Assembly: GCF_041886205.1 (NCBI RefSeq) | Contig: NZ_CP169029.1 | Reading direction: 5' to 3' (one strand) | Origin: Escherichia coli | GTDB taxonomy: Bacteria; Pseudomonadota; Gammaproteobacteria; Enterobacterales; Enterobacteriaceae | Length of the DNA stretch: 64,000 nucleotides | In this document: positions 40,123 through 56,001 of the stretch, piece after piece | Layout: each line of letters begins with the position of its first letter | Position numbering within the stretch: position 1 is the first letter of the stretch | Translations under genes and position numbers: made by a program | Notes under the pieces: generated by a model | Databases searched by the model: none | Seen by the model: only the letters and a program-made list of their open reading frames with translations | What the model was told of the DNA's origin: nothing

Positions 40123-40292
40123 TAGGTAGCGACTTGAAACTGGTTAATTTTACCTCACTTTTTTAATTTTTGTTCAAAAATACAATAACCACTTATTGAT
40201 ACATTTTCTTTTCTTATTTTTTTCACACGAATTGTATCTATTTTGAACGAAATATTTTATAGAGTGTGGAATTTTAAGAAAGGACATCTGAA

Positions 40293-40835
40293 ATGTTAAA
40301 CCGTGACTTCGATCATCTCTCAACGCTATTACATCTCTTTTTTGAACGTGAGGATATTTGCCAAAAGCTTAATATTATTGACCAAAACAATATCACCGGT
40401 TGGGAAGTGTGGTTCCAGGTAGAATTTGCTAATATGCTCTGCTCAACAGACCATGAATGGTGGCGTGAACAGGCACTTTCCTGTGATATGCGCAAAAAAC
40501 CTGAACGCCCGACACTACGCACAGATTTCTTACTACGTAAAAAAGGCTGGGCGCAAGATAGCTATATCGCGCTTGAAATAAAACAAAACAGTGACGCGAC
40601 CAGTTGTGTTAAAAATATGATCGCAGACTTAGAAAAAAGCGCCAAAATCAAACGTTCAGAACTCGAGTTACGCAGTTTCTGGACCCTGGGTATCACCCCT
40701 GTGATAGACAGAGAAAGGCTGGATTCTCTCATCGATTGCTATTTAGATGAGAAATTTTATCTTACTAAATCTCGTAAAAAACACGTTTTACTTAAAGAAA
40801 TAAATAATACACCATATTCCTATATTGTTATTTAA
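40293..40835 (+). CDS. hypothetical 180-aa protein with PD-(D/E)xK-like motif (D..ExK: RTDFLL ... YIALEIKQ); AT-rich orphan
   Basis: Intact ATG ORF in an AT-rich (roughly 38-40% GC) segment between divergent tsr and btsT; no recognised family from memory. Confidence 0.4.
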   Translation: MLNRDFDHLSTLLHLFFEREDICQKLNIIDQNNITGWEVWFQVEFANMLCSTDHEWWREQALSCDMRKKPERPTLRTDFLLRKKGWAQDSYIALEIKQNSDATSCVKNMIADLEKSAKIKRSELELRSFWTLGITPVIDRERLDSLIDCYLDEKFYLTKSRKKHVLLKEINNTPYSYIVI

Positions 40836-40943
40836 TATTTATAGCATGAATATAATTTTTATATGAGTTACACAACCGAGGGCTAAAAATCGCTTCGGTT
40901 GTGATCATCATCACATAAATAACCTTCATAAACCTTGCTCAAA

Positions 40944-40992
40944 ACCGCTCAACCGCAAAACTGACCGCTTACGTCCCTAAAATAACCACTCA
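40944..40992 (+). promoter_or_regulatory. BtsR (YehT, LytTR) binding site: three direct repeats ACCGCTCA / ACCGCTTA / ACCACTCA spaced 12-13 bp
   Basis: Matches the ACC(G/A)CT(C/T)A direct-repeat motif described for the yjiY (btsT) promoter; about 140 bp upstream of btsT. Confidence 0.5.
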
Positions 40993-41127
40993 GTTATTTA
41001 CCTTACTTTACGCGCGCGTAACTCTGGCAACATCACTGCAGGATAGCGGTCAATTTACCTCCTCAAACGCAACGCAAACCTAGAACGGCTTCGGCCAACG
41101 ATTAATCAATACATGCCAGGTTTTACT

Positions 41128-43278
41128 ATGGATACTAAAAAGATATTCAAGCACATACCCTGGGTGATTCTCGGAATCATCGGTGCATTCTGCCTCGCGG
41201 TAGTTGCATTACGTCGGGGGGAGCACGTCAGCGCCCTGTGGATCGTGGTCGCCTCTGTGTCGGTGTATCTGGTGGCGTATCGCTACTACAGTCTGTACAT
41301 CGCCCAGAAGGTGATGAAACTCGACCCCACGCGCGCGACGCCTGCGGTTATTAACAACGACGGTCTGAACTACGTTCCGACCAACCGTTACGTGTTGTTT
41401 GGTCACCACTTCGCCGCTATCGCCGGTGCTGGTCCGCTGGTCGGTCCGGTTCTCGCCGCACAGATGGGCTACCTGCCTGGCACGCTGTGGCTGCTGGCGG
41501 GGGTAGTACTGGCCGGTGCGGTTCAGGACTTTATGGTGCTGTTTATCTCCTCTCGCCGTAACGGCGCATCTCTCGGTGAGATGATCAAAGAAGAGATGGG
41601 GCCAGTTCCGGGGACTATCGCGCTGTTTGGCTGTTTCTTAATCATGATCATCATCCTCGCCGTTCTGGCGCTGATTGTGGTTAAAGCCCTGGCCGAAAGT
41701 CCGTGGGGTGTCTTCACCGTTTGCTCAACCGTACCGATTGCGCTGTTTATGGGTATCTACATGCGCTTTATCCGTCCGGGGCGTGTGGGTGAAGTCTCTG
41801 TCATTGGTATCGTGCTGCTGGTTGCCTCTATCTACTTCGGTGGCGTGATTGCTCACGATCCGTACTGGGGTCCGGCACTGACCTTTAAAGACACCACCAT
41901 TACCTTCGCGCTGATTGGCTATGCGTTTGTTTCCGCACTGCTGCCGGTGTGGCTGATCCTCGCACCGCGCGACTATCTGGCAACCTTCCTGAAAATCGGC
42001 GTTATCGTCGGCCTGGCGCTGGGTATCGTGGTGCTGAACCCGGAACTGAAAATGCCTGCGATGACCCAGTACATTGACGGTACTGGCCCGCTATGGAAAG
42101 GCGCTCTGTTCCCGTTCCTGTTCATCACCATCGCCTGTGGTGCGGTATCTGGCTTCCACGCGCTGATCTCTTCCGGTACGACGCCGAAACTGCTGGCTAA
42201 TGAAACCGACGCGCGTTTCATTGGCTACGGCGCAATGCTGATGGAGTCCTTCGTGGCGATTATGGCGCTGGTTGCTGCATCCATCATCGAACCGGGTCTT
42301 TACTTCGCGATGAATACCCCGCCTGCTGGCCTTGGCATCACCATGCCTAACCTGCATGAAATGGGTGGCGAGAACGCGCCGATCATCATGGCGCAGCTGA
42401 AAGACGTTACCGCACACGCGGCAGCGACAGTCAGCTCCTGGGGCTTCGTGATTTCGCCAGAGCAGATCCTGCAAACCGCGAAAGACATTGGTGAGCCTTC
42501 TGTCCTGAACCGTGCAGGTGGTGCGCCGACGCTGGCGGTAGGTATCGCTCACGTGTTCCACAAAGTGCTGCCGATGGCTGACATGGGCTTCTGGTATCAC
42601 TTCGGTATTCTGTTCGAAGCCCTGTTCATCCTGACCGCGCTGGATGCGGGTACTCGTTCTGGCCGCTTTATGCTGCAAGACCTGCTGGGTAACTTCATCC
42701 CGTTCCTGAAAAAAACCGACTCTCTGGTTGCCGGTATCATCGGTACTGCGGGCTGTGTGGGTCTGTGGGGCTACCTGCTGTATCAGGGCGTGGTCGATCC
42801 GCTGGGCGGCGTTAAGAGCCTGTGGCCGCTGTTCGGTATTTCCAACCAGATGCTGGCAGCCGTAGCGCTGGTACTGGGCACCGTTGTGCTGATTAAGATG
42901 AAGCGCACCCAATACATCTGGGTAACTGTTGTTCCGGCTGTATGGCTGCTTATCTGCACCACCTGGGCGCTGGGTCTGAAACTGTTCAGCACCAACCCGC
43001 AGATGGAAGGCTTCTTCTACATGGCAAGCCAGTACAAAGAGAAGATTGCTAACGGTACTGACCTGACGGCGCAGCAGATTGCCAACATGAACCACATCGT
43101 TGTGAACAACTACACCAACGCGGGCCTGAGTATTCTGTTCCTGATTGTGGTGTACAGCATCATCTTCTACGGTTTCAAAACCTGGCTTGCGGTGCGTAAC
43201 AGCGACAAACGTACTGACAAAGAAACACCGTACGTTCCAATCCCGGAAGGCGGCGTGAAGATCTCTTCGCACCACTAA
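41128..43278 (+). CDS. btsT: pyruvate/H+ symporter BtsT (CstA family)
   Basis: Translation MDTKKIFKHIPWVILGIIGAFCLAVVALRRG... (716 aa), polytopic membrane protein; start trimmed to ATG at 41128. Confidence 0.92.
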   Translation: MDTKKIFKHIPWVILGIIGAFCLAVVALRRGEHVSALWIVVASVSVYLVAYRYYSLYIAQKVMKLDPTRATPAVINNDGLNYVPTNRYVLFGHHFAAIAGAGPLVGPVLAAQMGYLPGTLWLLAGVVLAGAVQDFMVLFISSRRNGASLGEMIKEEMGPVPGTIALFGCFLIMIIILAVLALIVVKALAESPWGVFTVCSTVPIALFMGIYMRFIRPGRVGEVSVIGIVLLVASIYFGGVIAHDPYWGPALTFKDTTITFALIGYAFVSALLPVWLILAPRDYLATFLKIGVIVGLALGIVVLNPELKMPAMTQYIDGTGPLWKGALFPFLFITIACGAVSGFHALISSGTTPKLLANETDARFIGYGAMLMESFVAIMALVAASIIEPGLYFAMNTPPAGLGITMPNLHEMGGENAPIIMAQLKDVTAHAAATVSSWGFVISPEQILQTAKDIGEPSVLNRAGGAPTLAVGIAHVFHKVLPMADMGFWYHFGILFEALFILTALDAGTRSGRFMLQDLLGNFIPFLKKTDSLVAGIIGTAGCVGLWGYLLYQGVVDPLGGVKSLWPLFGISNQMLAAVALVLGTVVLIKMKRTQYIWVTVVPAVWLLICTTWALGLKLFSTNPQMEGFFYMASQYKEKIANGTDLTAQQIANMNHIVVNNYTNAGLSILFLIVVYSIIFYGFKTWLAVRNSDKRTDKETPYVPIPEGGVKISSHH

Positions 43279-43327
43279 CCGTGTTTAGCCCCGCTTCGGC
43301 GGGGCTTTGTTCTTATCAGAGTGAACT

Positions 43328-43531
43328 ATGTTTGGTAACTTAGGACAGGCAAAAAAATATCTCGGCCAGGCGGCGAAGATGTTGATTGGCATTCCAGACT
43401 ACGACAACTACGTCGAGCATATGAAGACCAACCATCCCGACAAACCGTACATGAGCTATGAAGAATTCTTCCGCGAACGCCAGAACGCGCGCTACGGCGG
43501 CGATGGTAAAGGCGGTATGCGCTGTTGTTAA
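43328..43531 (+). CDS. yjiX: small protein YjiX (DUF466)
   Basis: 67-aa [51 protein letters not shown]... Confidence 0.85.
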
Positions 43532-43541
43532 TGGAGAGAGC

Positions 43542-44498
43542 ATGAACCCGATTGCAGTTACCCTACTCACCGGTTTTTTAGGCGCGGGAAAAACCACCCT
43601 GCTGCGCCATATTCTTAATGAACAACACGGCTACAAGATTGCCGTGATTGAAAACGAATTCGGCGAAATCTCCGTTGATGATCAATTGATTGGTGATCGC
43701 GCAACGCAGATCAAAACGCTGACCAACGGCTGCATCTGCTGTTCGCGCTCCAACGAGCTGGAGGACGCGCTACTCGACCTGCTGGATAATCTCGACAAGG
43801 GCAATATTCAGTTCGATCGTCTGGTCATTGAATGCACCGGCATGGCCGATCCCGGCCCGATTATTCAGACCTTTTTCTCCCATGAGATTTTATGCCAGCG
43901 CTACCTGCTGGACGGCGTGATTGCGCTGGTGGATGCGGTACATGCCGATGAGCAGATGAACCAGTTCACCATCGCCCAGTCACAGGTTGGCTACGCCGAC
44001 CGTATTCTGCTGACTAAAACCGACGTCGCAGGCGAAGCAGAAAAACTGCGTGAACGCCTGGCGCGCATCAACGCCCGTGCACCGGTCTACACCGTTACCC
44101 ACGGCGACATCGACCTGGGCCTGCTGTTCAACACCAACGGTTTTATGCTGGAAGAAAACGTCGTCAGCACCAAACCGCGTTTCCACTTTATCGCGGATAA
44201 ACAAAACGATATTTCGTCGATTGTGGTGGAACTGGATTACCCGGTAGATATCAGCGAAGTTTCCCGGGTGATGGAAAACCTGCTGCTGGAATCGGCGGAT
44301 AAACTGCTGCGTTACAAAGGGATGCTGTGGATTGACGGCGAACCTAACCGCCTGCTGTTCCAGGGCGTCCAGCGCCTCTACAGCGCCGACTGGGACAGGC
44401 CATGGGGCGATGAAAAACCGCATAGCACGATGGTGTTTATCGGGATTCAGTTGCCGGAGGATGAGATTCGGGCAGCGTTTGCGGGGTTGAGGAAGTAA
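43542..44498 (+). CDS. yjiA: COG0523-family GTPase YjiA (metal chaperone-like)
   Basis: Translation MNPIAVTLLTGFLGAGKTTLLRHILNEQHGYKIAVIENEFGE... with CxCC motif GCICC (318 aa); start trimmed to ATG at 43542. Confidence 0.9.
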   Translation: MNPIAVTLLTGFLGAGKTTLLRHILNEQHGYKIAVIENEFGEISVDDQLIGDRATQIKTLTNGCICCSRSNELEDALLDLLDNLDKGNIQFDRLVIECTGMADPGPIIQTFFSHEILCQRYLLDGVIALVDAVHADEQMNQFTIAQSQVGYADRILLTKTDVAGEAEKLRERLARINARAPVYTVTHGDIDLGLLFNTNGFMLEENVVSTKPRFHFIADKQNDISSIVVELDYPVDISEVSRVMENLLLESADKLLRYKGMLWIDGEPNRLLFQGVQRLYSADWDRPWGDEKPHSTMVFIGIQLPEDEIRAAFAGLRK

Positions 44499-44832
44499 TT
44501 ACCTTAACCTACTCATACGAAGCGGACGAGGATAAAATCCTATCATTTTCCGTTCGCTTCATTATTTTATTTTCTTTCCAATGCCCATTCAAATTAAAAA
44601 TATAACTCTGCCATAACTTCCTGAACACAGATGTAATTACATTGCCACCTCTCATACTTTTAAAAACGATCCATATGACAAGTCGTCCTATTGGGGCGTG
44701 ATAGATGTATTAATTTCCAAATATGCAAACATTCTGATACAGTCCCAAAAAGAAAATAATTACCAACCCAGATAATCAGCAAATAAATTAATGACAGTTG
44801 AATTATAATCAACACGAATACAAGAGATTAAC

Positions 44833-46683
44833 ATGGCAACAATAATCCCAACAATCAGTAGCTGCAACGATAAAATTACTGCCGGAGAGAAAAGGCTGGC
44901 AAGAATTCTGGAAAGAGGACTAGGCGAAGAGTGCTGCTGTTGGTATGACATTCCCACGGGTGATAAGCATCTTCACCCAGATTTTATGATACTTTCGCCA
45001 GAAAAAGGCATTATTTTTCTCGAGGTAAAAGATTGGTTTATTACAAAAATAAAAAAAGCCAACAAGTCTAATGTGTGGTATGAGACACAAAATGGCATTC
45101 AATCTTTAAAGAATCCGATAGAACAAGTTAGGCGATATGCTTTCGAAGCTGTAAACCAGTTAAAAAAAGACCCCCTATTGCGCCAACAGGATGATCGTTA
45201 CAATGGCAATCTTCTTTTCCCCTATGGATATGGCGTCTACTTTAGTAATATTACACGAGAAGCATTAAATAATAAATTTACTCAAGAAGAGCTGCTCGGG
45301 ATCTTCCCATCAGATCTCATCATCTGCAAAGACGAACTAAATGAATTCATGTCAAAAGAGGATGTTTCATCTAAAATACATTCGTTAATTAAATATGACT
45401 TCAAATGTCATGCTACACAAGAACAGTTGAACAGGATTAGATGGCACTTATACCCCGATGTCAGAATAGAAAGGGAAAAGAGAAGTAAAAACCGTGATGA
45501 ATTGAGTGTCGATGCACCAACCATCATTTCTATCCTGGATACTCAACAGGAACAACTTGCCAGGAGTATGAGAGATGGCCACCGAATCATTCATGGTGTT
45601 GCAGGTTCAGGGAAGACATTGATCCTCTATCATCGCTGTCAGGAATTAGCGAAAAAAAATGACAGCGAAAAGCCAATACTTGTCATTTGCTACAATATTA
45701 CTTTAGCCAAAAAACTTCGGTCGATGTTCATCAATCATCCCTTTGCAGAGAAAATAAAGGTTAAAAATTTTCATGCATGGTGTTTCCAACAAATTAAAGA
45801 AAACAAGATCACCATTCCAGAAGGGGATAATATTTTTGAAAATATGGAGCAAGCGTTGACTGATGGTTTCAACACAGGAAAAATAAAACCAGAACAATAC
45901 AGCGCTGTATTAATTGATGAAGGACATGATTTTAAGCCCGAATGGTTAAAAATCCTTGCAAAAATGACTGACTCTCAGGACGAGAATTTGCTATTCCTTT
46001 ATGATGATGCTCAGTCAATTTACCAAAAAAAGAAAGCATTAGACTTTACACTGTCCAGCGTAGATATTAAAGCGACAGGGCGCACAACTATTCTTAATAT
46101 AAATTATAGAAACACACAGCAAATCCTACACTTTGCCAGTTGCATTGCATTTAATTATCTTAATAGCCATATCGATAGTTCTTTAACCTATCATAAACCT
46201 GCTGCGGGAGGAATGAATGGCGATTATCCCAACCTTGAACATTTCGACACACAGGACGAAGAAATAGCAAGAGCAGTCAAATGGATTACAGAGCAAAATG
46301 AACAAGGGATTCCGTGGTCTGAAATTGCTATACTAAGTCCATCAACTCATACCCTTTCTAACTCTCTAAGTTCTGTACTTGAATCGAAAAACATCCCCTT
46401 TAATCTTATTGTAAGCTCTGCAGATAAAAAATCCTGGACGCCAGAACAAGAGCGTGTTTCTGTGATGCCATTACCCAGCAGCAAAGGGCTTGAGTTTCAC
46501 TCAGTTGTCATTATTGACGCAGCGAGAACACGGGATAATAGCGATGATTTGAGTGAGGATATAAAGAGACTCTATGTAGGTTTTACCCGAGCACGTTGCA
46601 ATCTCTTGGTAACCTTGCACGGTGAAGGTGCGTTAAATGAGCATCTACTAAAAACCTATGAGCAAAGCCCACAATATATGTAA
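44833..46683 (+). CDS. NERD-like nuclease domain fused to SF1 (UvrD-like) helicase; candidate Nhi-like defence protein
   Basis: 616 aa. N-terminal NERD-like block (GEKRLARILERGLG ... HPDFMILSPEKGIIFLEVKDW); helicase Walker A HGVAGSGKT, Walker B LIDEGHDF, motif VI VGFTRAR. AT-rich (about 35% GC). Occupies the slot where K-12 has mrr-hsdRMS. Confidence 0.75.
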   Translation: MATIIPTISSCNDKITAGEKRLARILERGLGEECCCWYDIPTGDKHLHPDFMILSPEKGIIFLEVKDWFITKIKKANKSNVWYETQNGIQSLKNPIEQVRRYAFEAVNQLKKDPLLRQQDDRYNGNLLFPYGYGVYFSNITREALNNKFTQEELLGIFPSDLIICKDELNEFMSKEDVSSKIHSLIKYDFKCHATQEQLNRIRWHLYPDVRIEREKRSKNRDELSVDAPTIISILDTQQEQLARSMRDGHRIIHGVAGSGKTLILYHRCQELAKKNDSEKPILVICYNITLAKKLRSMFINHPFAEKIKVKNFHAWCFQQIKENKITIPEGDNIFENMEQALTDGFNTGKIKPEQYSAVLIDEGHDFKPEWLKILAKMTDSQDENLLFLYDDAQSIYQKKKALDFTLSSVDIKATGRTTILNINYRNTQQILHFASCIAFNYLNSHIDSSLTYHKPAAGGMNGDYPNLEHFDTQDEEIARAVKWITEQNEQGIPWSEIAILSPSTHTLSNSLSSVLESKNIPFNLIVSSADKKSWTPEQERVSVMPLPSSKGLEFHSVVIIDAARTRDNSDDLSEDIKRLYVGFTRARCNLLVTLHGEGALNEHLLKTYEQSPQYM

Positions 46684-46705
46684 AAATGATAAATGATCTC
46701 CATAA

Positions 46706-46730
46706 CGCCCGGTAACGCGGTACCGGGCGA
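46706..46730 (+). terminator. hairpin downstream of the NERD-helicase gene
   Basis: Inverted repeat GCCCGGTAACGCGGTACCGGGC about 25 bp after the stop codon. Confidence 0.4.
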
Positions 46731-46827
46731 AATGAATGCATATCTAAGATATTAGTCACGCCTGATAGCCGCTACCAAAAACACCATCATCTCCCTCGCA
46801 TCTTTGCGGTGATAAAATCGTACCATT

Positions 46828-47121
46828 TTGCTGTTAAATTCCAGCGCGTTAGCCGCTGGAATTAACAAGATCAGACTTCCGGCAACGAAGAGCCAGTTAT
46901 TACAAAAATTACTGGCAAAAGAGATAAAAAGCATTGTTGACAACACATCGAAATATCCTGACTGGAGTAAACACGATGATATTAAAGCGAAACTGAAAGT
47001 TGAACTTATTCTGCTTCTACACAAGCATAAGTTCCCGTCAGTAGCGAATGATGATGTTTATATGGGTGTGCTGGCACAGGCAGAGAGTTTTAAAGAACAT
47101 CATATGAGTCCTATAAATTAA
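46828..47121 (+). pseudogene. 97-aa remnant ORF; C-terminal part resembles the helical C-terminal region of type I restriction R subunits (from memory)
   Basis: In-frame stops immediately upstream; segment IKAKLKVELILLLHKHKFPSVANDDVYMGVLAQAESFKEH; AT-rich. Family assignment unverified. Confidence 0.3.
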
Positions 47122-47240
47122 TCATGAAGGCTGGATACACTTTGTTATCCGGCCATTGTGAATTAACGTTAATTTTTCTTCCAAATCTTTCCAGTAACGC
47201 TTTTATTATTTTCTATTTTTAGCTGGACTTTCCCTGTATT

Positions 47241-47260
47241 TACTGATGATATGTCCAGGT
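47241..47260. promoter_or_regulatory. LexA (SOS) box-like site upstream of symE: TACTGATGATATGTCCAGGT (CTG-N10-CAG core)
   Basis: CTG-N10-CAG core about 75 bp upstream of the symE ATG; symE is known to be LexA-regulated. Confidence 0.45.
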
Positions 47261-47299
47261 ATTTAGCGCGGTGCGGATGTGCGCCAACACACCCGCACC

Positions 47300-47376
47300 A
47301 CTCATCACAATCACTATTTTCAAGGAATAGCAGTTATGACTGACACGCATTTTATTGCACAACCGTTCGAAGCAGA
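47300..47376 (-). ncRNA. symR: expected location of the antisense sRNA SymR (antitoxin) overlapping the symE 5' end
   Basis: Placed from established knowledge that SymR is encoded antisense to the symE translation start; exact ends not verifiable from sequence alone. Confidence 0.3.
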
Positions 47377-47677
47377 AGTCTCCCCGGCAAATAACCGTCA
47401 ATTAACCGTGAGTTATGCGAGCCGCTACCCGGATTACAGCCGTATTCCCGCCATCACCCTGAAAGGTCAGTGGCTGGAAGCCGCCGGTTTTGCCACCGGC
47501 ACGGCGGTAGATGTCAAAGTAATGGAAGGCTGTATTGTCCTCACCGCCCAACAACCCGCCGCCGAAGAGAGCGAACTGATGCAGTCGCTGCGCCAGGTGT
47601 GCAAACTGTCGGCGCGTAAACAAAAGCAGGTGCAGGATTTTATTGGGGTGATTGCCGGTAAACAGAAAGTCGCCTGA
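47336..47677 (+). CDS. symE: SOS-induced toxin SymE (AbrB-fold endoribonuclease-like)
   Basis: Translation [72 protein letters not shown]... (113 aa) from ATG at 47336. Confidence 0.9.
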
Positions 47678-47685
47678 TAAATTGA

Positions 47686-47709
47686 CCCGGTAGCGCCAGT
47701 GCTACCGGG
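47686..47709. terminator. bidirectional hairpin terminator between convergent symE and the DUF262 gene
   Basis: Stem CCCGGTAGC / GCTACCGGG with 6-nt loop, 9 nt after the symE stop and 15 nt after the minus-strand gene stop. Confidence 0.55.
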
Positions 47710-47723
47710 TATTATTCGCCACG

Positions 47724-49817
47724 TTATACCAACGCGCTCTCCATCTGTTTTTCAAATGCCTGACGAATTAATCCCATAATGTAAGGAAGTTGTGCGAGGT
47801 CGCTGAAACCAATTTCCACATCACCATTACCCCAGCGCCCAATATTTGTCACATCTTTGGCAATACCTTTCGGATCGACCAGTTCATGAAACTGCATATT
47901 AAGCGACAATCGCAGTCGGCTTTTTTGCGGCACAACATCAACAAAATTCGTTTCAGCTTTAAACGCAATATACAGCTTTAAAACTTCCTGCGTGATCCCT
48001 GCGTCCAGGCGCATAACTTCATCGCGAAGATGATCGAATAACACCCGGCTATGCGAACCATCAGCAAGAAAAGGATAATCACTCAGGCTGTAACTGGTTT
48101 TGTTTTCTGGCTGCCCCCGATAAACAGCTAAAACCTCTTCAGAAAGAGAAGGCGCTTGCCAGACCTGAACCGCGAGATCGGCCAGACGATCGGCTCGGGC
48201 GTGAATGGCGGCTTCATCCCATTTTTCGCACTGTCCAAGACCGATATTCAAATAAAGCGGGCTATGTTTAAAGCCATCTTCAATATCGCGTTTTTCCGCG
48301 AAAGGTCTGTCACTGTAGCGGGAGTTATAGCGCGTTAAAGTGAGATTCCCCAACGTATGTAACAGTTCTTTATGCACACGCTGCCAGTCGCTTCCCAGCT
48401 CTTCACGCCATTTAGCCGACAGATTTTCGTTCTGCGGCATAATGTGCTCAATCGTAAACTCTTCCACGCGCTCTCTGCGTTTATCGTTTTCCAGTCGTCG
48501 TAACCAGTAGCTGCGGCTGCGGAAGTTATAGAGATCGCGCACTTTTAATTCCCGTTTAAATTCATCATCGTTGGGGAAACGACGATATGAAGGCAGGTTC
48601 ATAAAATGTACCTGAATACTTTCCAGATATTTTTCTTTATTAATGACCTTATAAAAAGTGGCAAACGTCTTGTTAAGAGAATTCGTCGGAATCGCACATA
48701 CTGCACGGCGGAAAACATAAGATTCAATTAAACGAATTATGCTCAGGAAATCTTCGTGAGACAAATCGTCATTTTTATAGTCATGATAAAGCGCCAGTAA
48801 GAAAGGATACGCCACATCAACCTTTAACTCGCGCAAATCCTGAAAAGCCGTAGCAAGCGATTTGTCACTTTCTTTTCCCAATGCCATTGCACAGTAATAC
48901 TCCGCGTAGATATGAATATCTTCAACCAGCCGATCTACGCCTTTTTCAGCAACACTCTGGCTGCGGGCATGGAGTTTAAATGCCTCATAGACTTCATCTG
49001 TCCGAGGGATCTCCCCCGTTTTTACCGTCAGATAATGACGCATAAAACTGTCAAAATATTCGCTGTAACCTTGCTGACCAAAGGCGACTTCCATTGGACG
49101 CCAGTGATCTTCATACAACCGGGTTTGATGCTCTGGTTCGAGACCCATCAGAATAAAATTGCGCACCAGATCGGCCTGACTTAACGCCTTACCGGTGGAG
49201 TTCATACTTTCAAAAATCAGTTGCGGATTATCCTGACCACGATTAAGCGCCACATCGACAATTAATAACTTTGCTAACCCTCGACATAAGGGAATCAAGT
49301 CATCCCCGAGTTTGGCAATTTGCTCATCAAAGAAAGTAAAGTTTTCCATTATTCGATGGGAATAGTTTTCTGGCATTGGTCTTTGTTTTATTAACGCCAG
49401 CAAACTGTCTTTATCAGTCTCGGTCAGCAGTAATTTAAAACCTTTCTCGCCGGACTCATAAGGATTGAGCAAATAATAATTACGCAATTTCATTGCCGAA
49501 AAGCCATCAAAAACTTCGTCTTCGCCAAGATGGCGCGATAAAGCCTCAATCAGCAACATTGCGGTCGTCAGCCGCTGCTGACCATCAATGACCAGCAACG
49601 GAGAAATACCAGAAACCTGATACAACCCCTGCTCAATATAAACAACCGAACCGATAAAATGCGCTGATATATCGTCACGCTTTCCGGCACGAATGATGTC
49701 GTCCCAAAGTTGCCGACATTGTTGCCCGGTCCATGAATAGGTGCGTTGATAAATGGGAATAACAAACTGCTGCGAACGTTTTAAAAAATCGAGTAGGCGG
49801 GCTTCTGTAGCTTTCAT
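47724..49817 (-). CDS. DUF262/DUF1524 (GmrSD/BrxU-like) putative type IV restriction endonuclease with an extra C-terminal module
   Basis: 697 aa. N-terminal ParB/DUF262 signatures IPIYQRTYSW and DGQQRLTT; His-Me finger-like segment EHIMPQ...LGNLTLT; about 120-aa C-terminal extension (YIAFKAETNFVDVVPQKSRLRLSLN...). Sits where K-12 has mcrBC. Confidence 0.75.
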   Translation of the reverse strand: MKATEARLLDFLKRSQQFVIPIYQRTYSWTGQQCRQLWDDIIRAGKRDDISAHFIGSVVYIEQGLYQVSGISPLLVIDGQQRLTTAMLLIEALSRHLGEDEVFDGFSAMKLRNYYLLNPYESGEKGFKLLLTETDKDSLLALIKQRPMPENYSHRIMENFTFFDEQIAKLGDDLIPLCRGLAKLLIVDVALNRGQDNPQLIFESMNSTGKALSQADLVRNFILMGLEPEHQTRLYEDHWRPMEVAFGQQGYSEYFDSFMRHYLTVKTGEIPRTDEVYEAFKLHARSQSVAEKGVDRLVEDIHIYAEYYCAMALGKESDKSLATAFQDLRELKVDVAYPFLLALYHDYKNDDLSHEDFLSIIRLIESYVFRRAVCAIPTNSLNKTFATFYKVINKEKYLESIQVHFMNLPSYRRFPNDDEFKRELKVRDLYNFRSRSYWLRRLENDKRRERVEEFTIEHIMPQNENLSAKWREELGSDWQRVHKELLHTLGNLTLTRYNSRYSDRPFAEKRDIEDGFKHSPLYLNIGLGQCEKWDEAAIHARADRLADLAVQVWQAPSLSEEVLAVYRGQPENKTSYSLSDYPFLADGSHSRVLFDHLRDEVMRLDAGITQEVLKLYIAFKAETNFVDVVPQKSRLRLSLNMQFHELVDPKGIAKDVTNIGRWGNGDVEIGFSDLAQLPYIMGLIRQAFEKQMESALV

Positions 49818-49913
49818 TCTGACGTCTTTCCGTGAAGCGATGATTTCGCAATAATAACCGCTTCCTTGTGGAGGTTATAGAGAAATCCTGTTTATCCGCG
49901 ATGAATTGCCCCC

Positions 49914-50078
49914 TCACTCCACATCCTCCCTACGTAACCCAATATCCCTCAACCGCTCATCACTCATCTGCTGTAACACTCGTCGGGTCTGCATTTGCCG
50001 CCGCCAACGCCTCACCGCCTGCCAGAGTTGCACAAGTCTGATAAACGGCGTTTTGGCTTTGTTTTCGTGAAATTCCAT
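49914..50078 (-). CDS. yjiS: small DUF1127 protein YjiS
   Basis: 54-aa ORF (too short for the ORF track) MEFHENKAKTPFIRLVQLWQAVRRWRRQMQTRRVLQQMSDERLRDIGLRREDVE with GAGGAGG RBS 7 nt upstream. Confidence 0.7.
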   Translation of the reverse strand: MEFHENKAKTPFIRLVQLWQAVRRWRRQMQTRRVLQQMSDERLRDIGLRREDVE

Positions 50079-50254
50079 CTGCTGCCTCCTCATCTTTCAG
50101 AGGCTTCATCATCCGCCTTCTGGCAGTTCACAATACAGATGCAAATATTAGTTTTATTTAACATACAGACAGGTTAAAACAGCATCTGCATCCGGTTTTT
50201 TAGCCTCATCTGTACCGGTTTTTCTTTCTGTATGGGCCAAATAAGGAATACAGC

Positions 50255-51667
50255 ATGACGCGTTATCAACATCTGGCGACTCTACTTGCCGAGCGGATTG
50301 AGCAAGGGCTGTATCGTCACGGGGAGAAATTGCCGTCGGTGCGCAGCTTAAGTCAGGAGCACGGCGTCAGCATCAGCACCGTGCAACAGGCGTATCAGAC
50401 GCTGGAAACGATGAGGCTCATCACTCCGCAGCCGCGTTCGGGTTATTTTGTCGCACAACGTAAAGCCCAGCCGCCTGTACCGCCGATGACGCGTCCGGTG
50501 CAGCGCCCGGTGGAAATTACCCAGTGGGATCAGGTGCTGGATATGCTGGAGGCGCATAGCGACAGTTCCATTGTTCCGTTAAGCAAAAGCACGCCGGATG
50601 TCGAAACGCCCAGCCTGAAACCGCTGTGGCGGGAGCTAAGCCGGGTGGTGCAGCATAATCTACAAACCGTTCTCGGTTATGACTTGTTAGCCGGTCAGCG
50701 AGTGTTGCGAGAGCAGATTGCCCGCCTGATGCTCGACAGCGGCTCGGTGGTCACCGCCGATGACATCATCATCACCAGCGGCTGCCATAACTCGATGTCG
50801 CTGGCGTTAATGGCGGTGTGTAAACCGGGCGATATTGTCGCGGTCGAATCCCCCTGTTATTACGGTTCGATGCAGATGCTGCGCGGCATGGGCGTGAAAG
50901 TGATTGAAATCCCAACCGATCCAGAAACTGGCATCAGCGTCGAAGCGCTGGAACTGGCGCTGGAACAGTGGCCGATTAAAGGCATCATTCTGGTGCCAAA
51001 CTGTAATAATCCGCTGGGATTTATTATGCCGGACGCACGCAAACGGGCCGTTCTCTCTCTCGCTCAGCGTCATGATATTGTGATTTTTGAAGATGATGTC
51101 TACGGCGAACTGGCAACGGAGTATCCGCGCCCGCGGACCATCCATTCATGGGATATCGACGGGCGAGTGTTGTTGTGCAGCTCGTTCAGTAAAAGTATTG
51201 CTCCAGGCCTGCGCGTGGGTTGGGTCGCACCGGGGCGTTATCACGATAAACTGCTGCATATGAAATACGCCATCAGCAGCTTTAATGTGCCGTCCACGCA
51301 AATGGCGGCGGCAACGTTTGTGCTGGAAGGTCACTATCATCGCCATATCCGGCGGATGCGGCAGACTTATCAGCGCAATCTGGCGCTTTATACCTGCTGG
51401 ATACGGGAATATTTTCCCTGCGAAATCTGTATTACGCGCCCGAAAGGCGGATTTTTACTGTGGATCGAATTGCCTGAACAGGTCGATATGGTTTGCGTTG
51501 CGCGGCAGCTGTGCCGCATGAAAATCCAGGTGGCGGCAGGCTCGATTTTCTCGGCTTCCGGCAAATATCGTAATTGTCTGCGCATCAACTGCGCTTTGCC
51601 GCTCAGCGAAACCTATCGCGAAGCACTGAAGCAAATTGGCGAAGCCGTGTATCGGGCAATGGAATGA
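50255..51667 (+). CDS. yjiR: MocR-like regulator YjiR (GntR HTH fused to PLP aminotransferase fold)
   Basis: 470-aa ORF with N-terminal HTH (LPSVRSLSQEHGVSISTVQQAYQTLE) and aminotransferase-like C-terminal domain. Confidence 0.88.
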   Translation: MTRYQHLATLLAERIEQGLYRHGEKLPSVRSLSQEHGVSISTVQQAYQTLETMRLITPQPRSGYFVAQRKAQPPVPPMTRPVQRPVEITQWDQVLDMLEAHSDSSIVPLSKSTPDVETPSLKPLWRELSRVVQHNLQTVLGYDLLAGQRVLREQIARLMLDSGSVVTADDIIITSGCHNSMSLALMAVCKPGDIVAVESPCYYGSMQMLRGMGVKVIEIPTDPETGISVEALELALEQWPIKGIILVPNCNNPLGFIMPDARKRAVLSLAQRHDIVIFEDDVYGELATEYPRPRTIHSWDIDGRVLLCSSFSKSIAPGLRVGWVAPGRYHDKLLHMKYAISSFNVPSTQMAAATFVLEGHYHRHIRRMRQTYQRNLALYTCWIREYFPCEICITRPKGGFLLWIELPEQVDMVCVARQLCRMKIQVAAGSIFSASGKYRNCLRINCALPLSETYREALKQIGEAVYRAME

Positions 51668-51783
51668 ATTCGAAATAGTGGCGAAGCACCTGATTTACTC
51701 TCAAGAATCGCCTGTAACTCGTTTTATCTTTATAGCGACATCGCCACGTTCCGGCATGGCTTAGGCAAAGTGCGCTTTGTTCA

Positions 51784-51885
51784 TGCCGGATGCCATGTGA
51801 ACGCCTTACCAGGTCTACAAAATCTTTAAAGTTCAATATATTTAATGGGTTATGTAGACCTGATAAGCGTAGCGCATCAGGCTGC
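51784..51885. repeat. REP element pair (BIME) downstream of yjiR
   Basis: GCCGGATGCCATGTGAACGCCTTACCAGGTCTACAA and inverted copy GTAGACCTGATAAGCGTAGCGCATCAGGC. Confidence 0.6.
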
Positions 51886-51909
51886 TTTGCGTTTGTCATC
51901 AGTCTCTGA

Positions 51910-52866
51910 TTAGTACTCGATCCATGGATCGCGCTTGCTTTCAGGCAAGGGCTGATCTAATGCCTGCATTTGCTCTGCCGAAAGTCCGGTATATCGTTGT
52001 ATCCATTCAGGATCGGCCCCATTCTGCAACAACAATCGGAGGAGGCTCCGTTCCCCTTCTACTTTCCCTTCTTTCCTCCCCCTCTCCCTTCCCAACAGCC
52101 ATCCATCATTATGAATTCGCTCTGCAATTGTCATTATTCGCTCCCTGTGGTGTGGCATTCGCCTGGTAAGTTCGCTGATAAACGCCTTAAAACGCGCTTC
52201 ATCGCCAGTCAGTAAAATGTAATTTAACAGCGCAGTTATCTGGCTGTCATTAGCACACTCTGTAACCAGTAATACTACCAGTTGATCGATAAGCTCCATC
52301 AGATCGCGCTGGCGAATATGCTTTTGGATCAACTCCAACAGAGCGACTCTGCGATGCTGCACAATCACGTCGTCTGGCACGACAGTGATATCCACCAGCG
52401 GGAACGCGGCGGTATAAAGCTTCCGTGCGGTAGTCGGGTCGGCAAATTCGTCCAGCCAGCACAGGGACCAGGGATAAGGACTACGGCTACCGTGATAAAA
52501 CAGCATCGGGATGACCAGCGGTAGCGGCCGGCGTTTATCATGCTCAATATGGCGCTGCATCACCGCCATGGAATATCGCATCAGGCGAAAGGCCATATGA
52601 ATATCCTCACGGCTCTGATGTTCAATCACTACGTAAATATAACCACCACCTTCACGGGTCTTTACCGACCACAGAATATCGGAGTGTAGCGCCCGCAATT
52701 TTTCATCGACAAAGCTGGCGGATTCCAGTTTTAAACTGTCGAGATCGCACTGTTCACGTAAATCTTTAGGTAAGTGGATCTCCATAAAATCCCGCGCGGT
52801 GTCAGGGTGCATGAGAAAGGACTTAAATAATGCGTCATGCGGCGTGCTGGTCGTGAAGTTTGTCAT
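51910..52866 (-). CDS. rpnD: Rpn-family (YhgA-like, PD-(D/E)xK) recombination-promoting nuclease, apparently full length
   Basis: 318-aa [36 protein letters not shown]... at the yjiP/yjiQ position; the K-12 locus is split, from memory. Confidence 0.75.
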
Positions 52867-53332
52867 GGCGATCCGTCACCTGTAGATAAGATGGCCCGAC
52901 TGTAGCGACTAACAAAACCATTCTCACCCGGCAATTTCTCGTTCCCCGAGGTGCTTTCCAGGCTATTTTTGTTCCTCTGCAAACGATACATTTTTCCGGA
53001 AACAGGCTCGCGTTTTACATTTCCTGTACCCGGCAGATATTCCCCTTTCCACCGCGCTCTTTTGATTAACCGCAAATTTTAATTACACTTAAGGTGTATA
53101 TTTTCTATGCAACCCATCAATTAAAGAGGTGTAATGTGCTGATGACTATTTGTAATCGTTATACATTCTGACCTGGAGTCAGAAGGTATTTCTCTGTCTG
53201 TGTGTTCACAGGCAGTGTGGTTGATTACATGAAATTCAGTACATTTGTCCTTCTCGCCTGCCCTTCGTCATTACCGACGGTATTGAATTTCGTTTTCCCC
53301 GTTGGGGTTCTCCGGACAAGGAGTTGTTTGTT

Positions 53333-54565
53333 ATGCCACGTTTTTTTGCCCGCCATGCCGCCACGCTGTTTTTCCCGATGGCGTTGATTTTGTATGACTT
53401 TGCCGCGTACCTGTCGACGGATCTGATCCAGCCGGGGATCATTAATGTGGTCCGTGATTTTAATGCCGATGTCAGTCTGGCCCCGGCAGCCGTCAGTCTC
53501 TATCTCGCGGGCGGTATGGCGTTACAGTGGCTGCTGGGGCCGCTTTCCGACAGGATTGGCCGCAGGCCGGTGCTGATTACCGGGGCGCTAATATTTACCC
53601 TTGCCTGCGCTGCGACAATGTTCACAACGTCTATGACACAGTTTCTTATCGCGCGTGCAATTCAGGGCACCAGTATCTGTTTTATTGCCACCGTTGGTTA
53701 TGTCACGGTGCAGGAGGCGTTCGGCCAGACAAAAGGGATCAAGTTGATGGCGATTATCACCTCCATCGTACTGATAGCGCCGATTATTGGCCCGCTTTCC
53801 GGCGCAGCTCTGATGCACTTTGTGCACTGGAAAGTCCTTTTTGCCATCATTGCAGTTATGGGTTTTATCTCATTTGTTGGCTTACTGCTGGCGATGCCAG
53901 AGACGGTGAAGCGCGGCGCGGTTCCATTTAGCGCCAAAAGCGTCTTGCGCGATTTTCGTAATGTCTTTTGCAATCGGCTGTTCCTCTTTGGCGCAGGAAC
54001 CATCTCTTTAAGCTATATCCCAATGATGAGTTGGGTGGCTGTCTCGCCGGTGATCCTGATCGACGCGGGCGGCTTAACAACTTCGCAGTTCGCCTGGACA
54101 CAGGTTCCGGTGTTCGGCGCGGTGATTGTCGCGAATGCCATCGTGGCGCGATTTATCAAAGATCCGACCGAACCGCGCTTTATCTGGCGTGCTATACCCA
54201 TTCAACTGGTCGGCCTCGCGCTGTTGATTATCGGCAATCTGCTGTCACCGCACGTCTGGCTGTGGTCGGTGCTGGGCACCAGTTTGTATGCTTTCGGGAT
54301 TGGTTTGATCTTCCCGACCTTATTCCGCTTTACGCTGTTTTCCAATAACTTACCGAAAGGGACCGTCTCCGCATCGCTGAATATGGTGATCCTGATGGTG
54401 ATGTCTGTCTCGGTCGAAATCGGTCGCTGGCTGTGGTTTAACGGCGGTCGCTTGCCGTTTCATCTATTAGCCGTCGTGGCGGGCGTTATCGTCGTTTTCA
54501 CCCTGGCGGGATTGCTTAATCGCGTGCGCCAACATCAGGCTGCCGAGCTGGCGGAGGAGCGGTGA
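53333..54565 (+). CDS. mdtM: MFS multidrug efflux transporter MdtM
   Basis: Translation [36 protein letters not shown]... (410 aa) from ATG at 53333. Confidence 0.9.
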
Positions 54566-54605
54566 TTTTTGCGCGATCCTGCCGTCAGGCTCTATTCTTA
54601 ACGTT

Positions 54606-55886
54606 ATGAATAAACTCATTGAACTCAGACGCGCCAAAATGTTGGCGCTCTCTTTACTGCTTATCGCCGCTGCTACCTTTGTCGTTACGCTGTTTTTGCC
54701 ACCCAATTTTTGGGTGAGCGGCGTGAAGGCGATTGCTGAAGCGGCGATGGTCGGCGCGCTGGCGGACTGGTTTGCGGTGGTGGCGCTGTTTCGCCGCGTG
54801 CCAATTCCGATCATTTCTCGTCATACGGCGATTATCCCGCGTAATAAAGACCGGATTGGCGAAAATCTCGGTCAGTTCGTGCAGGAAAAATTTCTCGATA
54901 CCCAGTCGCTGGTGGCATTGATTCGACGTCACGAACCGGCGTTGTTGATTGGCAACTGGTTTAGTCAGCCGGAGAACGCCCGCCGCGTTGGTCAGCATCT
55001 GTTGCAGATCATGAGCGGTTTTCTTGAACTGACCGATGATGCACGTATTCAGCGCCTGCTTAAGCGCGCGGTCCATCGGGCGATTGATAAGGTCGATCTT
55101 TCCGGAACCAGTGCGTTGATGCTGGAGAGTATGACCAAAAACGATCGTCATCAGGTGCTGCTCGATACGCTGATCGCACAGTTGATCGCCCTTCTCCAGC
55201 GCGATAAATCGCGCAAGTTTATTGCCCAGCAAATTGTTCGCTGGCTGGAGAGCGAGCATCCGCTGAAAGCCAAAATTTTGCCTACTGAATGGCTGGGCGA
55301 ACATAGCGCGGAGTTGGTTTCTGACGCGGTGAATTCTTTGCTTGATGATATCAGCCGCGATCGTGCGCATCAGATCCGTCATGCGTTTGATCGCGCCACT
55401 TTTGCCCTGATCGACAAGCTGAAAAACGATCCGGAAATGGCAGCGCGAGCCGATGCCGTAAAAAGTTATCTGAAAGAAGATGAAGCTTTTAACCGCTATC
55501 TCAGTGAATTGTGGGGGGATTTACGGGAATGGCTGAAAGCGGATATCAACAGTGAAGATTCTCGTGTGAAAGAACGTATCGCGCGGGCGGGTCAATGGTT
55601 TGGCGAAACGTTAATTGCCGATGATGCCTTGCGGGCATCGTTAAATGGTCACCTGGAACAAGCCGCGCACCGCGTCGCGCCTGAGTTTTCCGCATTCCTG
55701 ACGCGCCACATCAGCGATACAGTAAAAAGCTGGGATGCTCGGGATATGTCGCGGCAAATCGAGTTAAATATCGGCAAAGATCTGCAGTTTATCCGTGTCA
55801 ACGGTACGCTGGTTGGCGGTTGTATTGGGCTAATTTTATATTTGTTGTCGCAGCTCCCGGCCTTGTTCCCCCTCGGCAATTTTTAG
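54606..55886 (+). CDS. yjiN: DUF445 inner membrane protein YjiN
   Basis: 426-aa [39 protein letters not shown]... Confidence 0.85.
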
Positions 55887-56001
55887 AAATCCATGAAAAA
55901 CTAAGTGGCTAACCGCGAGAGAGATCAAATAAAACACACTAAAAGAATGGTAATAATGTGGCCTCTTTTCATTATCTCCCGTGGTACGGGGAAGGAAAAT
56001 C

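Follow-up and report, generated by a model that had tools for sequence, protein, structure and literature searches.

An uncommon allele of the Escherichia coli Immigration Control Region carrying a NERD-helicase gene and a GmrSD homologue on either side of symE

Introduction

The Immigration Control Region (ICR) of Escherichia coli is a chromosomal site at which strains differ in their restriction genes. According to PMC3874153, which cites Sibley & Raleigh 2004, alternative restriction-bearing segments occupy one defined place between yjiS and yjiA, and PMC3874153, PMC4498929 and PMC12707154, citing the same work, describe the ICR as a cassette-like variable locus. The present analysis concerns positions 44499 to 50254 of a 64,000-nucleotide (nt) stretch of E. 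coli DNA (assembly GCF_041886205.1, contig NZ_CP169029.1), the whole of which is referred to below as the window. In this interval, the toxin gene symE stands between two nuclease-type genes, a NERD-domain helicase gene on the left and a homologue of the type IV restriction gene gmrSD on the right.

The ICR has been studied for thirty years. It was found in 8,424/9,040 closed Enterobacteriaceae genomes, with GmrSD in 12% of loci, and symE-symR is among the toxin-antitoxin systems listed for it (PMC12707154). In the ICR of many strains, SMS-3-5 (EcSMS35_4888) included, mcrBC is replaced by a gmrSD homologue (PMC4437046, Fig. 8 legend). The main text of the E. coli defence-island paper PMC10121019 makes no mention of yjiA, mrr, symE or hsdR. 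Both the replacement of McrBC by GmrSD and the cassette-like nature of the ICR are already published. The locus itself adds little, being one more allele. What is useful is a base-pair map of both slot boundaries, evidence that the left cassette took the place of a type ID hsd array, and a clear negative answer, at the comparative level, to the question of whether symE is tied to particular neighbours.

Locus architecture and slot boundaries

The definition of the ICR used here, by position and by variable content, was taken from PMC3874153, PMC4498929 and PMC12707154. Under this definition, the interval is the E. coli ICR ('hotspot 36'), in the form of an uncommon allele of this known defence island. 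It lies between yjiA (with yjiX and btsT) and yjiS-yjiR-rpn (up to yjiN), its framework flanks match those of the K-12 ICR at 98.2% and 95.0% identity (blastn), and six differing contents occur at the same site in K-12, O157:H7, Nissle 1917, E2348/69, E. coli C and the window. The framework genes, slots and main cassette features of the window are as follows.

43542..44498, + strand: yjiA, COG0523 GTPase, left framework gene, named after the Prokaryotic Genome Annotation Pipeline (PGAP) annotation of the near-identical strain 6EVA
44499..47205: left variable slot, 2.7 kb, no K-12 homology, in the place of mrr-hsdR-hsdM-hsdS in K-12
44833..46683, + strand: NERD nuclease fused to a superfamily 1 (SF1) UvrD-like helicase, 616 aa, intact open reading frame (ORF)
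46911..47121, + strand: type ID hsdR scar, the last ~70 codons, matching PADLOC REase_I positions 959-1026 of 1029
47206..47673, + strand: symE/symR framework block, comprising promoter, LexA box, symR and the symE coding sequence (CDS) to 4 nt before its stop codon
47674..49908: right variable slot, 2.2 kb, no K-12 homology, in the place of mcrB-mcrC-yjiV-yjiT in K-12
47724..49817, - strand: GmrSD-family type IV restriction homologue, 697 aa, intact, with Pfam GmrSD_N, GmrSD_C and DUF5655
49914..50078, - strand: yjiS, DUF1127, right framework gene
50255..51667, + strand: yjiR, GntR/aminotransferase fusion, framework gene

The ORF listing and family searches agree in order and orientation with a preliminary description of this DNA, which gave yjiA, a NERD-helicase gene, a remnant ORF, symE, a DUF262-DUF1524 gene, yjiS and yjiR. 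Its statement that two nuclease-type genes flank symE is likewise upheld by the Pfam matches, NERD and UvrD on the left and GmrSD_N, GmrSD_C and DUF5655 on the right, with both ORFs uninterrupted. It had also proposed that the anchors yjiA, symE, yjiS and yjiR are retained while both cassettes differ from K-12, and blastn against K-12 MG1655 indeed returns three conserved blocks only. The first covers 40945-44498 at 98.2% identity and stops exactly at the yjiA stop codon, the second covers 47205-47673 at 93.6%, and the third covers 49909-56000 at 95.0% and begins 5 nt past the yjiS stop codon. Since unmatched DNA separates the three blocks, there are two separate variable slots, both unlike K-12. 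The K-12 DNA replaced amounts to mrr-hsdRMS (~7.9 kb) on the left and mcrBC-yjiV-yjiT (~7.6 kb) on the right. In comparison with O157:H7, the symE block is 95.6% identical and has the identical left edge at 47206. Aligned with other E. coli genomes, the cassette edges fall at or within a few bases of the yjiA, symE and yjiS stop codons. Direct and inverted repeats, sought at these edges as marks of site-specific recombination, were limited to short, chance-level matches. The slots have a G+C content of 0.35-0.47 (~0.35-0.43 in the left slot), against 0.52-0.59 in the flanks.

Among the closest described systems is the ICR of K-12 and its relatives, which shares with the window the framework btsT-yjiX-yjiA on one side, yjiS-yjiR-rpn-mdtM-yjiN on the other and symE/symR inside, as well as the exchange of alternative defence genes at sharp boundaries. 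However, the content differs. K-12 has mrr and EcoKI (type IA) on the left and McrBC with yjiTV on the right, whereas the window has the NERD-helicase with a type ID hsdR scar on the left and the GmrSD homologue on the right. Written as left slot / symE / right slot, the alleles of the named strains that were compared are the following.

K-12: mrr-hsdRMS(IA) / symE / mcrBC
O157:H7: split GmrSD-like + hsdRMS(IB) / symE / window-type GmrSD
Nissle 1917: brnTA-restriction endonuclease (REase)-hsdMSR(ID) / symE / empty
E2348/69: window-type NERD-helicase + scar / symE / empty

The allele of E2348/69 shares helicase, scar and symE with the window. It differs in being without the GmrSD cassette and in having its own symE 3' end and downstream hairpin. 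In SMS-3-5, the entire 5.7-kb interval is matched at 96.7% identity with identical architecture. The nearest public genome is that of strain 6EVA (NZ_CP138428.1), with 7 differences across 15.7 kb, and the window haplotype is ~3% diverged from every copy other than that of 6EVA.

Distribution and association of the cassettes

The frequencies and odds ratios given here refer to 5426 complete E. coli genomes, with clonal sampling included and no correction for phylogeny.

Helicase cassette: 100/5426 genomes
GmrSD cassette: 1351/5426 genomes
symE-GmrSD junction as in the window: 1285/5426 genomes
symE block: 2859/5426 genomes
Whole interval, both cassettes: 40/5426 genomes
Helicase genomes with an E2348/69-type empty right slot: ~59/100

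The left-slot cassette is present as a unit in its 100 genomes, always chromosomal and single-copy. The 40 genomes with both cassettes fall in at least three sequence haplotypes. Of the 1351 GmrSD genomes, 1285 share the symE junction of the window, which gives this junction a base rate of 1285/2859 where symE is present. Within symE-positive genomes, GmrSD occurs in 40/100 genomes with the helicase, against 1245/2759 of the others (odds ratio 0.81, p = 0.36). In about 37 further genomes, symE and the window-type GmrSD cassette stand together with the 3' end of a type ID hsdR. Most combinations thus exist, and by these sequence counts the helicase and GmrSD cassettes appear to assort independently, at approximately chance frequency.

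Very probably, the ICR is a fixed site that exchanges alternative defence cassettes, at which each unit acts alone and adjacency reflects a shared insertion site rather than a shared mechanism. The symE/symR block sits between two independently varying slots, and the cassettes would probably be exchanged by recombination in the conserved framework genes.

Several points weigh against this interpretation. When symE is ignored and all genomes are counted, the two cassettes are found together at roughly double the expected frequency (odds ratio 2.0, p ~0.001). This excess is attributed here to clonal sampling and to the need of both cassettes for a symE-bearing ICR. The mechanism of ICR segment replacement is stated to be unknown (PMC3874153). 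The defence roles of both nuclease genes of this allele are predictions from sequence; a search for a biochemically characterised member of the GmrSD + DUF5655 subfamily found none, and an ICR homologue named in the literature is only ~24% identical to Eco94GmrSD (PMC4437046). Finally, the nearest strain has a nonsense codon in the helicase gene, and selection on this gene may be weak in some lineages.

The hsdR scar and the origin of the left cassette

Between the helicase gene and symE lies a 97-codon ORF (46828-47121, + strand) whose start falls in unrelated junction sequence and whose C-terminal 70 residues are those of hsdR. The matching portion, from query position 161, has 94-96% nucleotide identity with full-length hsdR genes at their 3' end; these genes are carried by ~980 other complete E. 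coli genomes. In strain 6EVA, the scar is annotated by PGAP as a pseudogene lacking its N-terminus. Judged by this alignment, the scar is derived from a type ID hsdR. No hsdM or hsdS is found between yjiA and symE, and the remnant is thus not part of a complete type ID restriction-modification (R-M) system. Helicase and scar are co-carried in 100/100 genomes having either.

Nissle 1917 has an array of brnA-brnT, a restriction endonuclease gene, hsdM, hsdS and hsdR, with symE directly after it. As the scar is the 3' end of a type ID hsdR, and such an hsdR stands upstream of symE in Nissle 1917, the helicase cassette has replaced an array of this kind. An ancestral Nissle-type array (brnTA/REase/type ID hsdM-hsdS-hsdR) was swapped for the NERD-helicase cassette from the yjiA stop codon to 70 codons short of the hsdR end, with the scar and its presumed terminator left behind.

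The 'hsdR remnant' of E. coli C was considered as a possible instance of the NERD-helicase/scar allele, and this was ruled out by reading the E. coli C genome. Its ICR consists of yjiA, a DUF262 gene, an N-terminal hsdR stub and yjiS, with neither symE nor helicase. E. coli C is a different deletion of the same kind, in which the stub is the N-terminal part of hsdR.

The left slot also accommodates GmrSD-type genes in other strains. A 699-aa paralogue, 76% identical to the GmrSD homologue of the window, lies beside yjiA and divergent from hsdM in allele P0141 (compared loci L016/L017). The left slot of O157:H7 (L003, 787-2438) holds a split DUF262 + HNH pair, and that of E. coli C (L022, 23502-25154) an intact 550-aa DUF262 protein. 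Some strains therefore have GmrSD-like genes on both sides of symE.

The NERD-helicase gene

The left-slot protein combines a NERD domain, of the PD-(D/E)xK nuclease type (residues 17-110), with an SF1 helicase region matched by Pfam AAA_19, UvrD and UvrD_C (236-596). It stands alone as a single-gene cassette. Its motifs are P49-D50 and E64-V65-K66 in the nuclease, Walker A (G258/G260/K261/T262), Walker B (D362-E363) and T585-R586. The PADLOC model PDLC01087 'C3a187 NERD+UvrD' gives a full-length match (E = 2.7e-140; residues 1-599 aligned to model positions 1-547 of 559). Foldseek, run on an AlphaFold2 model with a predicted local distance difference test (pLDDT) score of 79, recovers UvrD/PcrA/Rep and also GajB and the eukaryotic proteins SLFN11 and Dna2, which the model resembles in whole-chain architecture. 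Among solved structures, the close matches are of the generic UvrD/PcrA/Rep type only.

Several described systems resemble this protein in that an SF1 helicase is joined to a nuclease domain or acts together with one, among them Nhi and Nhi-like proteins, GajB, SLFN11 and Dna2. PMC10952713 lists the NERD domain for Nhi-like and Mokosh type I systems as well. However, the PADLOC Nhi model covers only residues 235-436 of the window protein (model positions 183-339 of 470, E = 3.6e-9) and is thus far from a full-length match. The GajB model of Gabija matches only the helicase core, and partially (E = 7.5e-21), and no GajA-like partner with an OLD/TOPRIM nuclease lies beside the window gene, unlike the GajA+GajB pair of Gabija. 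No experimentally validated family matching the helicase over its full length was found. No paper on the NERD+UvrD family was found under the names searched, and 'cluster 187' is absent from the UG/Abi paper.

Most likely, the NERD-helicase would load on foreign or aberrant DNA, move along it as an ATP-driven translocase and degrade it through its PD-(D/E)xK domain. An alternative is that it has no part in defence, being a decaying passenger or a DNA-repair accessory helicase, with the left slot effectively emptied. This is unlikely. The name given by PGAP, '3'-5' exonuclease' only, agrees with it, as do the want of a validated family or paper noted above, insertion sequence (IS) elements within the gene in some carrier genomes, and the nonsense mutation in 6EVA, where a C-to-T change at window position 45418 is annotated as an internal stop. 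Against it, the ORF is uninterrupted in the window and intact in most of the 100 carrier genomes, and 32 homologues, with identities as low as 42%, all have the PD...EVK residues of the nuclease, the Walker A/B residues and T585-R586 unchanged. The full-length PADLOC match also speaks against it. Moreover, orthologues at 58-63% identity occupy the same island in other genera, adjoining yjiA in Enterobacter kobei and yjiR in Klebsiella aerogenes, the Photobacterium orthologue has a PLD-helicase/methyltransferase pair and a type III R-M system as neighbours, and paralogues (~40% identity) are carried on plasmids of E. coli and Vibrio. Phage genomes yielded nothing beyond two weak partial matches in Vibrio phages.

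The gene is best regarded as an under-described candidate defence gene, its anti-phage role being suggested by domain content and genomic context. Conserved as a single gene, the NERD-nuclease/UvrD-helicase resides in the ICR of Escherichia, Enterobacter and Klebsiella and, because no experimental characterisation of it was found, it is a reasonable candidate for a phage-defence assay.

In Photobacterium damselae (L011-L013), the helicase orthologue stands beside smpB and divergent from the methyltransferase and PLD/SNF2-helicase pair. Either a type III R-M system or integrase/transposase genes lie close by, and the locus has the look of a defence island of its own, associated with transfer-messenger RNA (tmRNA).

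The symE/symR block

The central block holds the complete symE/symR module.

47243..47258, + strand: LexA-type box CTG-N10-CAG (TACTGATGATATGTCCAGGT) in the symE promoter, found by pattern search and relaxed scan
47265..47341, - strand: symR antisense RNA antitoxin, Rfam RF01809, 88.4 bits against a gathering score of 61
47336..47677, + strand: symE, SOS-induced type I toxin, NCBIfam NF010128, 227 bits against a cutoff of 132, residues 1-112 of 113

SymE is 94.7% identical to K-12 SymE in amino-acid sequence. The symR match is full length (1-77, E = 9.6e-17) and overlaps the symE start codon at 47336. LexA is reported to repress symE (PMC3874152), and the predicted LexA box is conserved in four other alleles, those of K-12, O157:H7 and E2348/69 among them. 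In SymE, symR and LexA box, the window module is the same as that of K-12, with nothing substantive different. Only the sequence immediately downstream, hairpin included, differs, because it is part of the neighbouring cassette. The module would therefore be expected to act in the usual way, repressed by LexA, blocked by the antisense RNA and responsive to DNA damage.

The preliminary description had raised the question of whether symE is functionally coupled to the adjoining defence genes. Under such coupling, self-cutting by whichever nuclease adjoins would induce the SOS response, and SymE would compact the nucleoid and limit the self-damage; the ICR would then work as one unit, an 'interchangeable weapon plus fixed safety catch' that limits autoimmunity, and symE would be kept at its centre for that reason. 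The idea has points in its favour. The central position of symE is constant in K-12, O157:H7, Nissle 1917, E2348/69 and the window, whatever the cassettes, and its predicted LexA box is conserved. PMC11894785, with reference to Thompson et al. 2022, now describes SymE as a DNA-binding, nucleoid-condensing protein. According to the discussion of PMC4437046, double-strand damage and SOS induction are to be expected from low-level expression of GmrSD.

Nevertheless, coupling is quite improbable, and the comparative evidence does not support it. About 47% of complete E. coli genomes have no symE match at the sensitivity used, and E. coli C has a DUF262 gene in its ICR yet no symE. In Enterobacter, Klebsiella and Citrobacter, ICR-type loci hold orthologues of the two nucleases but no symE, as tblastn with SymE in those loci finds none within 7-8 kb. 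Most type ID genomes, like ~59/100 helicase genomes, have symE beside an empty right slot, and the two cassettes combine, mutually and with other alleles, at about chance frequency. A sign of shared regulation in the sequence is lacking as well: in 44400-50300, the relaxed scan finds no LexA-type box but that of symE, and none upstream of the helicase or GmrSD gene, and hairpins lie between the three units.

The GmrSD homologue

The right slot carries a common cassette of one gene, with both domains of GmrSD in one chain, PF03235 (DUF262; residues 9-222, E = 4.1e-34) and PF07510 (DUF1524; 415-547, E = 1.6e-26). The motifs of the family are present, namely DGQQR (78-82), IEHIMPQN (456-463) and an N-rich motif (489-503) made up of LGNLTL (489-494) and RYNSRYSD (496-503). 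Among solved structures, the best relative is 9jfl, an unnamed DUF262 protein (E = 1.3e-12), whose EH motif aligns with that of the window protein. The PADLOC models matched are Orf5/HEC-06/mREase_IV/SspE. The protein is 98% identical to the 697-aa representative of a cluster of 3852 sequences, and its subfamily (~700 aa, with DUF5655) is unusually conserved, at 70-83% identity across many Gammaproteobacteria. The gene lies 96 nt downstream of yjiS on the same strand.

Eco94GmrSD and BrxU carry out a nucleoside triphosphate (NTP)-stimulated cleavage of DNA with modified cytosines, either 5-hydroxymethylcytosine (5hmC) or glucosyl-5hmC (PMC4437046, PMC12707154). With these and SspE-type proteins, the window protein shares DUF262 with DGQQR, the HNH-type DUF1524 domain and the single-chain architecture, and its relatives lie in a defence island adjoining type I R-M genes in many genomes. 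It differs by the extra C-terminal DUF5655. By homology, it would be an NTP-stimulated, modification-dependent HNH endonuclease attacking phage DNA with modified cytosines.

In O157:H7, a 1-nt deletion at gene position 801 splits the GmrSD gene; this deletion is absent from the window copy. The PGAP annotation of 6EVA nevertheless divides the gene into a DUF1524 CDS and a DUF262 pseudogene, although the DNA is identical to that of the window. For the window, this split was rejected, as the ORF is continuous and the family model is matched end to end. The split in 6EVA appears to be inherited from the frameshifted O157:H7 form. Two feature names stand over the GmrSD cassette in many genomes, and intact copies may be under-reported.

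Outside E. coli, the Citrobacter ICR has an orthologue (82% identity) that converges with hsdR. The most frequent neighbour of the GmrSD family is a type I hsd system, apparently operonic with it in Oceanimonas. That NERD-helicase and GmrSD form a co-selected pair, in which modified phage DNA would first be cut by GmrSD and then degraded from its ends by the helicase-nuclease, would suit the intactness of both genes in the window, the 40 genomes in at least three haplotypes that have both and the odds ratio of 2.0 over all genomes, but it is highly improbable, given the lack of association within symE-positive genomes, the ~59% of helicase genomes with an empty right slot, the 97% of GmrSD genomes without the helicase, the occurrence of each gene without the other in other taxa and the type I hsd system as the commonest partner of the family.

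Hairpins and palindromes between the units

Hairpins separate all three units, namely helicase, symE and GmrSD.

46706..46729, + strand: hairpin with a 9-bp stem (CGCCCGGTA/TACCGGGCG), 23 nt past the helicase stop codon
47122..47161, + strand: strong hairpin directly after the hsdR-scar stop codon, between the left slot and the symE promoter
47685..47710: perfect palindrome with a 10-bp stem and a 6-nt loop, between the convergent symE and GmrSD stop codons

The first hairpin (-19.7 kcal/mol, z = -3.05) is conserved in E2348/69. The second (-19.0 kcal/mol, z = -5.85) is presumably the old hsdR terminator, and 0/200 shuffled sequences fold as well. The third folds with -20 to -23 kcal/mol on either strand (z ~ -2.8) and begins at a distance of 8 nt from the symE stop codon on one side and 14 nt from that of the GmrSD gene on the other.

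In the preliminary description, symE and the DUF262 gene were said to be convergent and to share one terminator hairpin. The convergence, with 46 nt between the genes, and the hairpin are both present. Its function as a terminator would be a further step: the tails that follow it, UAUUAUUC on the + strand and CAAUUUAU on the - strand, make a poor U-tract. A consensus terminator scan called none of the three inter-unit hairpins, and that at 47685-47710 on neither strand, because of the poor U-tract. The O157:H7 copy has a better + strand tail, CAUUUUUC. The hairpin after symE has the window form in O157:H7, whereas K-12, E2348/69 and Nissle-type alleles each have a different one. By this distribution, the 47685-47710 hairpin belongs to the GmrSD cassette, not to the symE block.

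The arms CCCGGTA...TACCGGG occur exactly twice in the 64-kb window (46708-46727 and 47686-47709), where the chance expectation is none. K-12 has CCCGGT...ACCGGG after symE. Kindred palindromes (CCCGGTAGCGCTGACGCTTACCGGG and similar) are found in Klebsiella aerogenes beside yjiS and after yjiR, and in Enterobacter kobei between cstA and yjiX; in the compared loci, the palindromes stand at L008 5885 and 7699, L006 6603 and L002 14472. They could be elements like the repetitive extragenic palindromic (REP) sequences, marking the ends of ICR genes. An Rfam scan gave no match besides symR.

Nearby variable genes

Outside the interval, an 821-bp segment of low G+C content (window 40124-40944) lies between tsr and btsT. 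It is missing from K-12 and present in 362/5426 complete E. coli genomes, O157:H7 included. Its 180-aa ORF (40293-40835, + strand), annotated 'hypothetical protein', has only marginal matches, such as a TnsA-like endonuclease N-terminal domain (E = 0.054). The segment may represent a further, small variable slot immediately outside the ICR.

On the other side, rpn (rpnD / yjiP-yjiQ; 51910-52866, - strand), which encodes a recombination-promoting PD-(D/E)xK nuclease, is an intact 318-aa ORF in the window. It is a pseudogene in K-12 and is frameshifted in O157:H7 strain 3384. Over-expressing a repaired K-12 rpn reportedly increases RecA-independent recombination and induces the SOS response (PMC4498929).

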